From a virus, in the IMG/VR virus record IMGVR_UViG_3300044911_002386, positions 32,001-96,000 of that record: 64,000 nt of DNA; one strand, given 5' to 3'. Both the position numbers and the translations under genes were made by a program. The notes beneath the pieces were generated by a model, which saw only the letters and a program-made list of their open reading frames with translations, did not search any database and was not told the DNA's origin. Of the stretch, positions 1 through 16,311 are shown one piece after another (within the stretch, counting starts at the first letter, position 1; each line of letters opens with the position of its first letter).

Positions 1-271
1 GCTGGCCTTCCTTGGTCTTTCGAGCCGCGGCGTTAATCGCTGCTACGATGGTCGCACCGGGCAGTACGGGACCCAACTCCTCGTGCATATGCAGGCTGCC
101 GAGGAACTCAATATGCCCCATCTCGATGTGGTCGGCGTCGGTCTTGACGCGCTTCGAACTGACGCTCTTGAGCGCCTTAGAGAACTTGTTCAGCGGGTTT
201 GCCATCTGAACGTTTTTCACAACCATCGGGCCGTCCCCGGTGATCTTGTAATCAACATTAACCCAACTCAT
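1..271 (-). CDS. RAMP/Cas7-like RNA-binding protein (putative effector of the GGY-NN array); 5' part only, runs off the window edge
   Basis: Not in the ORF track. ATG at 271-269 overlaps the HNH stop (ATGA) and has an AAGGA RBS. Open for 90 codons to the edge: MSWVNVDYKITGDGPMVVKNVQMANPLNKFSKALKSVSSKRVKTDADHIEMGHIEFLGSLHMHEELGPVLPGATIVAAINAAARKTKEGQ. The 'KITGDGPM' strand and 'PVLPGATIVAAI' resemble the RAMP beta1 and P-x-IPGSS-LKG motifs of Csm3/Cmr4/Cas7-group proteins. Confidence 0.7.
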   Translation of the reverse strand, partial: MSWVNVDYKITGDGPMVVKNVQMANPLNKFSKALKSVSSKRVKTDADHIEMGHIEFLGSLHMHEELGPVLPGATIVAAINAAARKTKEGQ

Positions 272-585
272 TGATCTATGTCCTTCCGTTGATGAATCGT
301 GGGAACAATGTAATTACAGCCCAAGTCTTTGTTTTTGTAGCGACGAGCTCGTATTACATTTGTTATTGCTTCGTGACACTCGCTGCATAGCGTAATTAAA
401 TCTTTTTCGACATCCTCTTCGCCAAACCGTTCATACGTCTTGTGATGCACTTCGAGCTGATATACAGATCCGTCGTGCAAACACGTTTGGCATTCATAGT
501 TGTCAATCACTAGACGTTGCGTGCGCTTTTCACACCAGTCATATCTGGCCATGCGCACGGCATAATTTAACGTCGTTGAATCCAT
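268..585 (-). CDS. HNH endonuclease (Zn-binding)
   Basis: CQTC...LEVHHKTY...DLITLCSECH, the typical CxxC/HH/LCxxCH HNH pattern. Confidence 0.85.
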   Translation of the reverse strand: MDSTTLNYAVRMARYDWCEKRTQRLVIDNYECQTCLHDGSVYQLEVHHKTYERFGEEDVEKDLITLCSECHEAITNVIRARRYKNKDLGCNYIVPTIHQRKDIDQ

Positions 586-596
586 TTGTTACCCCT

Positions 597-629
597 GGTT
601 TATGTGTAGTTTCCGCAGCACATAAAACC
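597..629 (-). other. stem-loop between the array and the HNH gene
   Basis: GGTTTATGTG (597-606) pairs with CACATAAAACC (619-629) with one bulge. Confidence 0.5.
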
Positions 630-643
630 GCAACCTACCCTAA

Positions 644-1457
644 TTGTTTTGAAAGAAAAAACCAAACCCAACGTCACCCTGCGTTACCTTACCGGACGTT
701 ACCCGACCTTACCGGACCATATTTTGTTTGAAAGAAAAAACCAGACCTGACCAAACCCCAGCTTATGCCACCCCACCGAGCCAAACCCTATTTTGTTTGA
801 AAGAGAAAACCAGACCTTACCGTGCCTGACGTTACGCTACCGAACCAGACCGCACCCTAAATTGTTTTGAAAGAAAAAACCGAACCAAACCCAATAGCGC
901 CATGCGTTACCGAACGAAATCAAACGTTGCCAAAACAGACACTACCGAACCGTACCGGACCTAACGCAAATTATTTGAAAAAACCATACCGAAAGCTACC
1001 GGACAAAACGCAACGATACCGGACCTGACCGCAAAATTTTGAGAAGAGAAAACCAAACAAAACCGAGCCTAACGATACCCTGCCGTACGCTTGTTGAGAA
1101 AAAAACCATACCTGACCTGATCCCGCCATACCGTACCATGCCGTACCGGACAAGACCCTACACGACGTTACAACACCTTATATGTTTGAAAGAAAAAACC
1201 AGATCTGACCAAACCCCAACTTACCCTGCCCCACGCTACAGTTTTGAAAAAGAAAAACCCTGCCACACCGTACCAAACCTAACCCGACGGCATTCGACCG
1301 AAGCTAACCACAAAGTTTTGAAAGAAAAAACCATACCCGATCGAACGTTACAACACCTCACGTCACCAGACCCGACCTAACGATAAAGTTTTGAAAGAAA
1401 AAACCTAACCTTACGCCGCCATACCGAGCCGGACCTGACCTTACGCCAGCCGACCAT
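644..1457 (-). repeat. 11-unit array of 5-nt-phased (GGY-NN)n tracts separated by conserved U-rich linkers; putative guide-RNA array
   Basis: Plus-strand linker ~TTTGAAAGAAAAA. RCC-NN pentamer tracts at 661-720, 740-789, 809-858, 879-968, 983-1032, 1052-1091, 1105-1179, 1198-1237, 1257-1311, 1330-1384 and 1403-1457 (12,10,10,18,10,8,15,8,11,11,11 pentamers). By hand count, 83/124 triplets are exactly ACC or GCC and all 124 start with a purine. Confidence 0.95.
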
Positions 1458-1464
1458 AAGTATG

Positions 1465-1935
1465 TTATTTAGCGCTGTCGCCAAGAATGACGTTGCGACA
1501 GCCGCACGATGTTGCGAGAGGAAGCACATCATCTGCATAGCCCGCGACTAGTTTCTCTTTGTCGAGATAACCAGTGCTGATAAGTGCCTGCAAGCCTAAT
1601 CGAGCAAAGCCCCGCCGCCGGAACGCCGGGTCGACAAAGCATTCCACCGTCTGCACAGCGACAAACGTGTCTTTTACATGCTCGCGCCATGGGCGTGTGC
1701 CCACCCAGCCGACTAAAACACCTTTAAGCCACACGAAGGCTATTGCCATGTTGGGGTGCGGGCCTGGCTGCGGGTTGAGGTAACGCTTATCCAGTTCTTT
1801 TTGAATAGAGCTCGCACTGCCTGAGTCTGGCCACGAAAGCCGCGAACAAATAGCAGCGACATCAACCGGCCGCAATTGATTGATGTCTTTGATGTAAATG
1901 TTAATCTCGTCCATATAGGCCTCCATACCTGGCAC
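1465..1935 (-). CDS. GNAT-family acetyltransferase
   Basis: Acetyl-CoA binding motif A, FVDPAFRRRGFARLGL; true start may be a few codons downstream. Confidence 0.75.
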   Translation of the reverse strand: MPGMEAYMDEINIYIKDINQLRPVDVAAICSRLSWPDSGSASSIQKELDKRYLNPQPGPHPNMAIAFVWLKGVLVGWVGTRPWREHVKDTFVAVQTVECFVDPAFRRRGFARLGLQALISTGYLDKEKLVAGYADDVLPLATSCGCRNVILGDSAK

Positions 1936-1949
1936 ACGAGTTTAACTAT

Positions 1950-2022
1950 AGCCGGCGGCGGGAGTCGAACCCGCAACCTACTGATTACAAATCAGTTGCG
2001 CTGCCAATTGTGCCACGCCGGC
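1950..2022 (-). tRNA. tRNA-Thr(UGU)
   Basis: Reverse complement GCCGGCGTGGCACAATTGGCAGCGCAACTGATTTGTAATCAGTAGGTTGCGGGTTCGACTCCCGCCGCCGGCT folds as a cloverleaf; anticodon TGT, T-loop GTTCGAC; CCA not encoded. Confidence 0.95.
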
Positions 2023-2034
2023 GATCCGCACAGT

Positions 2035-2400
2035 TTACCCAAAATCGATGGCGCTAATAGCCGCAAATTGTCGCATGGTCATGAATTTAACGCGTTCGCG
2101 GTAAAAAGCCGCGTCGTGATGAGCACTGATTGATTCGCCCTCGTTATCATTGCCAAGAACTAAACCGTAACCCGCCAGCGGTTGCGGGTAGTCGGGCAGT
2201 GCAAAAAACTTAGTGCTGGGCTCGAGTTTGAGTAAGCCTTCGTCGTCAACAAAGACGTCATCGTCATCAGCCAGACGCACCAACGCAAAACAATCGACCT
2301 TGATGTGCTCATAGATTTGCTTGTAGTCGCCGTTATACGTGACGTCTGTGACTTCTTCTTTGTACGGGTCAATCAGGACAGCCTTGTGTTCAGCAGTCAT
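2035..2400 (-). CDS. DUF3846-like phage protein
   Basis: KAVLIDP...VFVDDEGLLK...QPLAGYGLVLG pattern; start at MTAEH overlaps the upstream stop. Confidence 0.65.
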   Translation of the reverse strand: MTAEHKAVLIDPYKEEVTDVTYNGDYKQIYEHIKVDCFALVRLADDDDVFVDDEGLLKLEPSTKFFALPDYPQPLAGYGLVLGNDNEGESISAHHDAAFYRERVKFMTMRQFAAISAIDFG

Positions 2401-2858
2401 ACGGGCTCCAGTTTTGTAGGCCATACGTACGGCAGGTAGATCTCTTCCATCCAGCCAAATTTGGAATAGTGCGCGTAATCTTTACGCAAGAGATTGCCGC
2501 GGTGAGACGCATGAAAGTCATCGTCGCCAAACCACGGCGGGTAATTATTTGCTTTTATTGTCGGTCTAATAATTGAGTACCGATGTTCAAATTCCCGGCA
2601 TAGATTGTCTGTAAACTTGCGGCGGCGCCACTCACGGCACATGACGATGCTATAAACAAGCAGGGCTGTTTCATAGCCTGCCCACATTTGCACCGCCGGG
2701 TGGTTACGCCAGCGAGAGACGCTTGGCATATGGGCACCAATCGGCACGCCTAGGCACAGCAGTATTTGTTTACACTCTACGCGCTGTTTGCCTAGACGCT
2801 TATTGTCCAGCACCGCCGCCGACCGCCGAAAACTCGGCAGGGGCAGAAATGTTTGCAT
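2397..2858 (-). CDS. pyrimidine-dimer DNA glycosylase / MSMEG_6728 family (endonuclease V-like)
   Basis: MQTFLP...LDNKRLGKQRVECKQIL...NHPAVQMW...PPWFGD..FHASHRGNLLRKD signature. Confidence 0.85.
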   Translation of the reverse strand: MQTFLPLPSFRRSAAVLDNKRLGKQRVECKQILLCLGVPIGAHMPSVSRWRNHPAVQMWAGYETALLVYSIVMCREWRRRKFTDNLCREFEHRYSIIRPTIKANNYPPWFGDDDFHASHRGNLLRKDYAHYSKFGWMEEIYLPYVWPTKLEPV

Positions 2859-2863
2859 GTTAA

Positions 2864-3205
2864 TTAGTCATCGTAATCGTCGGAATCAAAGTCGTGCTCG
2901 TACTCGGGCTCTTCTTCGTCTTCGTCTTCGTCGTCTTCGTCTTCGTCATTCCAGCTAAATGACTCTTCGTCATCTTCTTCTTCGTAATCCTCGTCTTCGT
3001 AATCCTCATCTTCGTCTTCGTCATCTTCGTCGGCGTACCAGTCGACATTTGGCTTGTATAAGACGTCGTCATCGTCGTCATCGTCATCGTCATCGTTGTC
3101 GCTGACGAACTGCCACTCTTCTTCAATGAAATCGTCGTCCAACCCGTCGTCGTGGTCTTTTTTGCTAAAAATGGATTGTTCAGCCCGTCGACGATCATAT
3201 GCCAT
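2864..3205 (-). CDS. highly acidic Asp/Glu-rich small protein
   Basis: 113 aa dominated by D/E runs with interspersed W/Y/F; packed between flanking genes. Confidence 0.7.
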   Translation of the reverse strand: MAYDRRRAEQSIFSKKDHDDGLDDDFIEEEWQFVSDNDDDDDDDDDDVLYKPNVDWYADEDDEDEDEDYEDEDYEEEDDEESFSWNDEDEDDEDEDEEEPEYEHDFDSDDYDD

Positions 3206-15100: not shown

Positions 15101-16311
15101 ACGCCGGCTCTGTGGTTGTCGCTAACGACTGTGCCCGCGCCGCCCGGGTTTGTGTTTTTTGGCGTCCAGATAAACACTTCGTCTTGATTTAAAACAACGC
15201 CATCGGCCGTTATTTTATTGGTGACATTATTAAGCAGGTAGACGCTATCTTTTGCTTTAACTGGTGTCGCGGTGGCGGCTGAGCCGCTATTGCGGCGTGC
15301 AATGCTAAATTTGTTTTCTTTAATCGTGCAACCAGTAACCGAGTCATCACCGACAAAATATGTGCTGACGCCGAAATCAAGAAGATTGAACTCAGGGCAC
15401 GGTATCCGCGGAATCGGTACCTCGATGACCAGTTCGACATCAAATATGCACTGGCCGGGGTCGTTGCAATTTTGCGGTTCAATGTGCCGAGGAATGATTC
15501 GAAATTTGTTGTTGTTAGCGCCGCTACCACAAATATCGTCTGGGTCGTTCGGGTCATAAAAATATGTGTCAACGTTGAACTCTGTGACCGAGATTATCGG
15601 GCACTTAATTCTCGGAACCGGGATATTGATAGCGAGCTCAACGTCAAAAATACATCGACCCGGGTCGTTACAGTTTTGCGGCTCTTCATGCCGCGGCGTA
15701 ATAAAGAAGACGTTATTAATTTTGCAGGCGTCAGAATTTTCGTCTTCAAAATACGTATTGACCCTGAACCGATTTAAACTGAACTCAGGGCATTTGAGAC
15801 GCGGAATAGGTATGTTGATGTCCAACACAATGTCGAACGTGCATTGCCCGGGGTCGCTACAGGTAGGAGGCGTGTGCCGTCGGTTAATTGTTAGCGTGCT
15901 TGTCTTAGCCGGGCAATTTGAGTTGTCAACGAAGTAAACCGACTGCGACGTGGGAGCGATATTAATCTGCGGGCACGGAATGTTTGGTACCGGAACATTG
16001 ATGTCTAAGTTAATTTCATATTCGCACGGATTTGTTTCTTTGCTCGGTCGCGTAATTGTGAGCAAAGCTCGCGGAGTATTGTCGCACCCAGCTGCGGCGG
16101 TCGCGACGCGAATCGTAGATTCGGCTGTAAATTCTGGGCATTGGAAATCAGGCGTACGCGGCACGATTGGCAACACGCACTCAAAGATCGGCGGCGGTGT
16201 CGGCGCGATACGACAATCTTGAATAAAGTCAAAATTGACTTTTGGTACCGGCGCCACTTGGCAGTCGGGATCAGACTCTACAAAAAGATTGTCGGATGTG
16301 TTGTCAGCCAT
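12199..16311 (-). CDS. collagen-like fibre protein with ~10 Cys-rich repeats
   Basis: G-X-Y tract at ~12288-13123; repeats of CxDPGxCxFDVELxIxIPIPxxxCP. Confidence 0.85.
12288..13123 (-). repeat. collagen (Gly-X-Y)n coding repeat, Thr-rich
   Basis: [25 protein letters not shown]...GSTGPTG with few interruptions. Confidence 0.9.

Follow-up and report, generated by a model that had tools for sequence, protein, structure and literature searches.

A VIPR locus with an HNH gene in a large lake phage and its guide matches to mobile-element genes of Planctomycetota

Introduction

What does a phage do with a tandem array of phased pentamers that lies in a row with an HNH gene and a gene for a RAMP-like protein? 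The question is raised by a 64,000-nt stretch of DNA (hereafter the window), bases 32001-96000 of the 167,811-bp virus record IMGVR_UViG_3300044911_002386 (82% complete by CheckV), at whose left end three minus-strand elements follow one another: the array (647-1455), an HNH open reading frame (ORF; 268-585) and the gene vipr, with its ATG at 271. Here we describe the locus as a member of VIPR, a kind of system already published. We judge it, with a probability of about 0.8, to be a functional VIPR with an associated nuclease, carried by a large lake phage and aimed at mobile elements of Planctomycetota.

VIPR systems consist of a RAMP protein with an RRM core, a thumb and a G-loop, one accessory gene, and pentamer RNAs; the NN pairs of these RNAs read the target and pass over one base between pairs, as a rule the wobble base of the codon (10.64898/2026.04.26.720920). 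The repeats are adjacent to the genes, non-coding and tandem, of the form YNNGG or a relaxed YNNNG, with about 9-16 units (10.64898/2026.04.26.720920).

The array and its genes

The three elements of the locus are as follows.

647 to 1455, minus strand: vrRNA array of 11 units, each a phased pentamer tract with a short U-rich linker.
268 to 585, minus strand: HNH-family accessory nuclease gene, 105 amino acids (PF01844, E 2.6e-8).
1 to 271, minus strand: 5' part of vipr; the full gene, of 230 amino acids, extends past the left window edge (G000 C1 31579-32271; L001 11579-12271).

The array comprises units of 57-109 nt with 7-17 pentamers each, split by ten U-rich linkers, and the pentamers of every unit are in exact phase with the linker. 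The third base is a pyrimidine in every pentamer (114/114), the second is G in 100 of the 114, and the first is G in 81 and C in 23; all 16 dinucleotides occur at positions 4-5. Pairs of GGY at a lag of five bases number 48, versus 4.2 ± 2.0 (maximum 13) in 2000 dinucleotide shuffles, and no strict pentamer tract was found elsewhere in the 167.8-kb genome. Units 4 and 10 are paralogues. No significant fold was found for any array unit, and the linker that ends each unit forms, at best, a weak hairpin of 5-7 bp. Past unit 11, ahead of the HNH ribosome-binding site, a remnant of two to three pentamers (625-641, minus strand) is possibly a degenerate twelfth unit.

An earlier note, written from the letters of the window alone, had described this array of 11 units, the HNH gene in the middle and a gene whose ATG at 271 overlaps the HNH stop, and all three are borne out; the overlap is 4 nt, and both sequence motifs quoted for the product, KITGDGPM among them, are present. 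The GGY-NN code proposed there holds in part. The NN pairs do decode to targets, only with a 1-nt skip, and the scaffold is looser than proposed, with frequent CGY: strict GGY accounts for only 72/114 pentamers (63%), so that the scaffold is better given as (G/C/T)GY-NN.

The sole sequence match of the 230-residue protein in the PDB (phmmer) is the Vipr of SUSP1 (36PP; E 2.6e-26 over residues 7-204, 32% identity). An AlphaFold model with a predicted local distance difference test score (pLDDT) of 91 retrieves Csm3/Cas7-group RAMPs as its top folds in Foldseek and VIA-align (Csm3, VIA Z 10.3, root mean square deviation 3.8 over 146 residues), as the note had expected of a RAMP/Cas7-like protein. 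The likeness to VIPR that it pointed to was also apt; as to novelty, which it left to a literature check, the system has been published and is therefore not new in kind. The pairing of homologs with pentamer arrays, on which the note had made its proposal depend, is found in six related lake-phage loci (L002, L005, L006, L008/L009, L010 and L013), which keep the order array-HNH-vipr.

The locus thus has a Vipr outside any CRISPR context, adjacent pentamer repeats, vipr with one vap gene and, by computation, NN pairs that specify non-self targets through a 1-nt skip placed at the wobble base. Class 1 CRISPR-Cas systems share the RAMP fold (Cas7/Csm3) but differ in having cas1, a repeat-spacer array and contiguous pairing; here no Cas1 was found in the virus record, at its 82% completeness, the array is pentamer-phased and the pairing is non-contiguous, in line with the note's view that this is not a canonical CRISPR locus.

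Decoding of the guides

The guides were decoded by the published 1-nt-skip rule. Five have convincing targets (unit 2, 19/20; unit 4, 14/14; unit 8, 29/34; unit 10, 17/18; unit 11, 22/22), and unit 1 has a probable one (16/20). All assigned matches skip the codon wobble base, and skips of 0, 2 or 3 bases and shuffled guides score clearly lower for the assigned guides. No self-target above background was found in the phage's own genome or in the loci of its relatives. The earlier note had suggested competing phages or host genes as possible targets; instead, the predicted targets are mobile-element genes in genomes of one freshwater Planctomycetota family, and two of the element families are tRNA-integrated. 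The targeted element families number at least two and probably three (here A, B and C); a tRNA-linked integrase, an excisionase and a replication module are present in families A and B.

Targets in family-A elements

Two guides are assigned to the helicase gene of family A, one of them as probable.

865 to 966, minus strand: unit 8, 17 pentamers; target, the ~630-residue helicase gene of family-A elements, antisense.
1389 to 1455, minus strand: unit 1, 10 pentamers; probable target, the Walker A codons of the family-A helicase, sense strand.

For unit 8, a 19-base pattern of the positions common to it and its orthologue in L002 was searched against metagenomes. It retrieved 16 contigs, and in 15 of the 16 the match lies antisense in the same stretch of one ~630-residue helicase family, with the skip on the wobble base. 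Beyond the seeded bases, the L002 guide matches the helicase gene at 29/30 and unit 8 at 27-29/34. Across 14 variants of the site, conservation at codon positions 1, 2 and 3 is 0.93, 0.93 and 0.75, the pattern that the wobble logic predicts. Unit 1 matches at the DNA level with four misses, two of which amount to one switch of Ser codon family; at the protein level it scores 18/20 versus a shuffle maximum of 16, which makes the Walker A codons its probable target.

The helicase so targeted has a P-loop and is related to fusions of primase and polymerase (PHROG 10537, 19930); the scan of IMG/VR gave no relative of it. Its gene belongs to a module beside a tRNA gene, comprising a tyrosine integrase, a helix-turn-helix (HTH) excisionase, an unannotated ORF of 290 residues, the helicase and PolA. 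It is borne by records named Planctomycetota or Pirellulales; four family-A genomes fall in one GTDB family (176 genomes), and one of the records bears the label Kuenenia. In the family-A loci scanned, a solo vrRNA array was not found. In the region 3' of one family-A element (L486:16700-20072), an AAA ATPase gene is matched 19/22 by guide L009_3 and an ORF 16/18 by guide L008_4.

Targets in family-B and family-C elements

For families B and C, the guides were searched with mismatches in the 176-genome Planctomycetota family.

647 to 718, minus strand: unit 11, 11 pentamers; target, a ~270-residue unannotated gene 5' of the element PolA gene, family B, sense strand.
1316 to 1382, minus strand: unit 2, 10 pentamers; target, a small gene of family-B elements, sense strand.
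1185 to 1235, minus strand: unit 4, 7-8 pentamers; target, a primase catalytic motif, sense strand.
727 to 787, minus strand: unit 10, 9 pentamers; target, the same primase motif as unit 4.

The family-B element is a second tRNA-integrated element, with a tyrosine integrase and PolA; one copy, of ~7.9 kb, is bounded by a 40-bp tRNA repeat. Unit 11 matches completely (22/22) in genome G076, and the same gene family is matched in eight genomes; the reversed control gave seven matches, in other genomes. Unit 2 matches the same gene in four genomes, and its control pattern matches none. The unit-2 target gene is excisionase/HTH-like as judged by position and size only, a profile search having given no match. 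The sites of units 2 and 11 lie 1.7-1.8 kb apart in two genomes. Two family-B copies (G076 and G176; L512:13821-17891, L514:1600-6400) have brxB, brxC and PglX-like BREX genes beside them.

Units 4 and 10 match the same motif, which we take to be the catalytic histidine motif of archaeo-eukaryotic primases, in a primase gene (PHROG 16345) that adjoins a DnaB-like helicase gene. Unit 4 matches fully over 7 pentamers (14/14; 14/16 over 8), and unit 10 reaches its 17/18 in two genomes. The total match count of this search is at control level, so that the evidence for the primase consists of two exact matches and of convergence on one gene family.

Guides of relatives

The guides of related phages match the same genes independently, at other sites or on the other strand. 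The unit-11 gene is also matched by L002_3 (22/24), L005_3 (21/22) and L010_4 (19/20), the unit-2 gene by L013_3 (20/22) and the primase motif by L005_8 (22/26); for each of these, the 1-nt skip exceeds shuffles and skips of 0, 2 and 3.

This convergence bears on the reading of the array as a decaying or neutral repeat whose matches are due to chance or are relics of past targets. Such a repeat would suit the low share of strict GGY, and the conservation of NN between orthologous guides is only suggestive (27 scaffold versus 10 NN changes over all orthologous pairs, P=0.07). Against it stand the perfect or near-perfect in-frame matches that converge from several phages, the intact genes, and the turnover of units in a strain whose Vipr is 98% identical. 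We regard this reading as very improbable and, judging by the target matches, already largely refuted.

Guides with no assigned target

The remaining five guides are as follows.

1242 to 1309, minus strand: unit 3, 10 pentamers; target search negative.
1094 to 1177, minus strand: unit 5, 14 pentamers; target search negative.
1037 to 1089, minus strand: unit 6, 7 pentamers; 13/14 against the 3' part of a longer L005 guide, too short to assign.
974 to 1035, minus strand: unit 7, 10 pentamers; no convincing target.
796 to 856, minus strand: unit 9, 9 pentamers; target search negative.

In the 176-genome family, the matches of units 3, 7 and 9 are at control level or scattered among unrelated genes. 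Unit 5 has a recurrent 17/20 match in what is presumably a CheB-like chemotaxis gene, which was rejected on dropping to 19-20/28 at full length; one exact 18-base match in GTDB lies in an alphaproteobacterium. For unit 6 and its longer orthologues, a PglX-like gene of BREX came out as a borderline target and was not accepted. Scans of IMG/VR with exact sub-patterns of units 5, 8 and 11 gave chance-level extensions (best 22/28, 25/34 and 20/22, respectively).

The Vipr pocket

In SUSP1 Vipr, K33 and R138 are essential residues, W178 and R179 lie in the G-loop, and H17 and D177 read the first G (VIPR preprints). The first four, which include the thumb Arg and the G-loop Trp-Arg pair, are retained in the lake phage as K35, R149, W189 and R190, and the two readers of the first G are changed to K19 and E188. 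Lys at position 17 (SUSP1 numbering) occurs in all nine members of the phage clade, in 0/71 other sequences of the tree and in 1/69 GTDB sequences. C at pentamer position 1 occurs in 17/84 pentamers of the window and 33/290 of the clade, versus 31/1778 in loci with His17. The association of the His17-to-Lys change with CGY pentamers is a correlation only, because it concerns a single clade; this clade-specific change is not in the VIPR preprints cited here. Relative to SUSP1, the protein also has a nine-residue insertion before the thumb and a C-terminal extension of ~25 residues. No longer or fused Vipr forms turned up, which is weak evidence.

The HNH gene and the type of the locus

The metal-binding and catalytic residues H47, H48, C67, C70 and H71 are invariant among 35 vipr-adjacent HNH homologs. 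The HNH gene lies directly 5' of vipr in 49/70 GTDB (cellular) loci and in 41/76 IMG/VR Vipr loci, and is thus common enough to mark an established branch of VIPR. In most loci outside the clade (L029, L031, L034-L040 and others), the HNH ORF extends 118-290 nt past the vipr start, in a different frame; the overlap in this phage clade is 4 nt only. On a Bradyrhizobium plasmid (CP126019, L105), HNH and vipr lie near genes for DUF3320, a metallophosphoesterase and an AAA ATPase, surroundings that resemble a defence island; translated from the match start, vipr there has one stop in frame. A predicted complex of Vipr and HNH gave a median of 0.30 versus a mark of 0.32.

A close comparison is the type II VIPR of SUSP1 (36PP; 10.64898/2026.04.26.720927). 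Both are phage-borne and aimed at integrated mobile elements, with a homologous Vipr, pentamer guides, the 1-nt skip, wobble alignment, targets on both strands and no self-target. In SUSP1, however, one plus three guides flank the genes, each guide has a ~40-nt pseudoknot tail, a DNA-binding vap1 lies downstream, and Vipr has His17 and Asp177; here, eleven guides lie upstream, the tail is a short U-rich linker, the HNH gene lies upstream of vipr, and the two residues are Lys and Glu. The locus is not VIPR type II, as it has neither the conserved structured 3' tail nor the downstream vap1.

Types III and V encode nucleases, are enriched in defence islands and are aimed at viruses (10.64898/2026.04.26.720920). 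In Fig. S21 of the same preprint, as far as its legend tells, an HNH-domain Vap is placed among types II, III and VII, and on that legend the locus is most plausibly a nuclease-bearing type III. Types III and V likewise have an HNH gene directly upstream of vipr, and the present clade nests among HNH-linked Viprs; they differ in their described setting, cellular defence islands with viral targets, whereas here the carriers are phages of 168-196 kb and the targets lie in bacterial genomes.

Host and mechanism

The host of this large lake phage is probably a freshwater member of the Planctomycetota. Apart from the guide targets, weak side evidence points the same way: the phage DUF6915 gene (G000 15920-16255) is 62% identical to a gene 3' of a family-A element in a Planctomycetota genome (L486), a SprT-like gene is common to the phage and family-A elements, and tRNAs of the Planctomycetota family, the only ones compared, share 91% identity over 64 nt with the tRNA-Thr of the phage (1950-2022). 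The targeted elements are probably parasites or competitors of the virus.

If the locus works as SUSP1 VIPR does, the array would be transcribed during infection and its units separated at the U-rich linkers. One Vipr subunit per pentamer would assemble into a filament on the unit RNA, the NN pairs of which would read double-stranded DNA with every third base skipped, and the filament on the target duplex would block expression of the element genes. Induced elements would then be unable to excise or replicate, and could neither compete for replication and packaging nor parasitise the phage. Finally, HNH may cut the bound DNA, so that the elements would be destroyed beyond silencing; this is the least certain step. 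We put the chance that the HNH product, co-translated with vipr, cuts guide-bound DNA at slightly better than even.

The same VIPR with the same targets might instead act by transcriptional silencing only, with HNH as a Vap1-like DNA-binding helper or as a maturase that cuts the linkers. SUSP1 VIPR stops its satellite through repression alone, and a roadblock would be enough at the sites targeted here, which lie inside the coding sequence of replication genes; in addition, the linkers lack strong structure, and something must separate the units. The invariance of the metal-binding residues and of the catalytic His/Cys in the vipr-linked HNH family argues against this, as does the reading of nuclease-bearing types as target-destroying (10.64898/2026.04.26.720920). 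We consider silencing alone possible but less likely than not.

The satellite of SUSP1, F5 (10.64898/2026.10.15.759431), resembles the present targets in that the guide reads conserved codon-determining positions in an essential gene of an integrated element; it differs in that here the guides match helicase, primase and PolA-linked genes of Planctomycetota element families, for which no structural genes were found in common with the phage. By gene content, the elements may be likened to tycheposons and phage-inducible chromosomal island (PICI)-like elements (10.1101/2020.12.28.424599), which are also tRNA-integrated, with a tyrosine recombinase, an excisionase, a primase/helicase/polymerase module and variable cargo, in a similar size range; tycheposons are from a different phylum, and the targeted elements have no recognised terS or capsid gene.

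Another possibility is that the targets are defence or cargo islands, some with BREX, rather than parasites of this phage, and that VIPR serves as counter-defence against islands induced by infection. Family-B elements in G076 and G176 adjoin brxB/brxC, two relatives' guides match a PglX-like motif (19/22 and 20/24), and no packaging genes were recognised in the elements. The PglX-like match, however, is borderline (about 0.09, as an estimate, after correction for 40 guides) and was not found at ≤3 mismatches in the 176 genomes, and all strong matches lie in replication or element core genes, none in cargo. A counter-defence role is therefore unlikely in our view.

Several points weigh against a functional, nuclease-associated VIPR aimed at Planctomycetota elements. 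Units 3, 5, 6, 7 and 9 have no assigned target, and unit 1 matches at only 16/20, with a DNA score that ties the shuffle maximum. The family-C primase contigs showed no tRNA, and an integrase was not recognised in their ORF lists; nor was a capsid or small-terminase gene, or any other gene for packaging or interference, recognised among the ORFs scanned in the elements examined, many of which are unannotated, so that the elements are at most candidate satellites of this phage. The host is inferred mainly from the guide targets themselves, and an HNH gene adjoining vipr is no demonstration of guided-target cutting.

Relatives and turnover of the array

Vipr homologs of 61-98% identity are found on freshwater contigs of up to 196 kb, near the large terminase gene. 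In a tree of 80 Viprs, the nine clade sequences form a clade with 100/100 support, nested among HNH-linked Viprs (deep support is weak), and SUSP1 Vipr branches far from it. The HNH-vipr pair is constant across the clade, and the flanking genes vary.

Related loci gain and lose whole guide units. L006, the strain with the 98% identical Vipr, has units 1, 6, 7, 8 and 11 in common with the window; units 2-5 are missing from it, with a linker-to-linker join in their place, and two different units replace units 9 and 10. Of its six substitutions in shared units, five are in the scaffold. In L002 (Vipr 75% identical), the orthologue of unit 8 shares 23/30 NN bases. One strain-specific unit (L006:1337-1420) consists mainly of two alternating NN values and, when decoded with the skip at the first base of the codon, fits runs of Asp codons; a stretch of ten pentamers in it matches 17/20 on an acidic ORF of the window (2864-3205). 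The match may be due to chance because of its low complexity, and the unit may alternatively be a guide newly made by slippage. The DNA contigs of the sequencing runs showed no joints and a single variant unit fragment. That fragment, on a contig of the X15 run, agrees with unit 3 over its 3' half and linker (window 1240-1288) but has differing pentamers on both sides, which suggests a related or chimeric guide of another strain.

Genomic setting

In the virus record, the large terminase gene (L001:8272-10242, plus strand) adjoins the VIPR locus; its best cultured matches, ~30% identical, are the ~180-kb Salmonella phage Arash and Vibrio phages, and the clade seems to lack close relatives in culture. 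On the 5' side of the array, the block at 1465-2858 (minus strand) encodes a GNAT acetyltransferase, tRNA-Thr(tgt) (1950-2022), DUF3846 and a pyrimidine-dimer glycosylase. Relatives retain some of these genes and have others inserted ahead of the array. No sigma-70 promoter consensus was found in window positions 1-2100.

Significance

VIPR is very recent, and most of the natural targets assigned to particular elements come from E. coli and Pseudomonas. The VIPR preprints cited here describe neither the nuclease form on a phage nor the altered pocket nor the decoded targets in Planctomycetota. The targets give independent natural support, in a third phylum, for the 1-nt-skip, wobble-aligned code; they also point to the likely hosts of this uncultured group of large lake phages and bring to light two or three families of elements treated as rivals by the phages.

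Tentatively, and at somewhat less than even odds, we propose that a phage VIPR with a nuclease and an altered pocket (His17 to Lys, CGY tolerated or preferred) cuts several element families resident in its Planctomycetota host and refreshes its guides by gain and loss of whole units without Cas1. If true, VIPR would have a DNA-cleaving form on a phage, contrary to the published division in which phage VIPR is a silencer and host VIPR a nuclease, and the changed pocket might resist hijack by GGY decoy guides. With its two small genes and short RNAs, the locus is well suited to asking whether HNH makes VIPR an RNA-guided nuclease, whether residue 17 governs recognition of the first G, and by what route an array changes its guides in the absence of Cas1. 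SUSP1 VIPR needed no protospacer adjacent motif (VIPR preprints), and if the cutting is real, Vipr and HNH would form a compact programmable nuclease of 230 + 105 amino acids.
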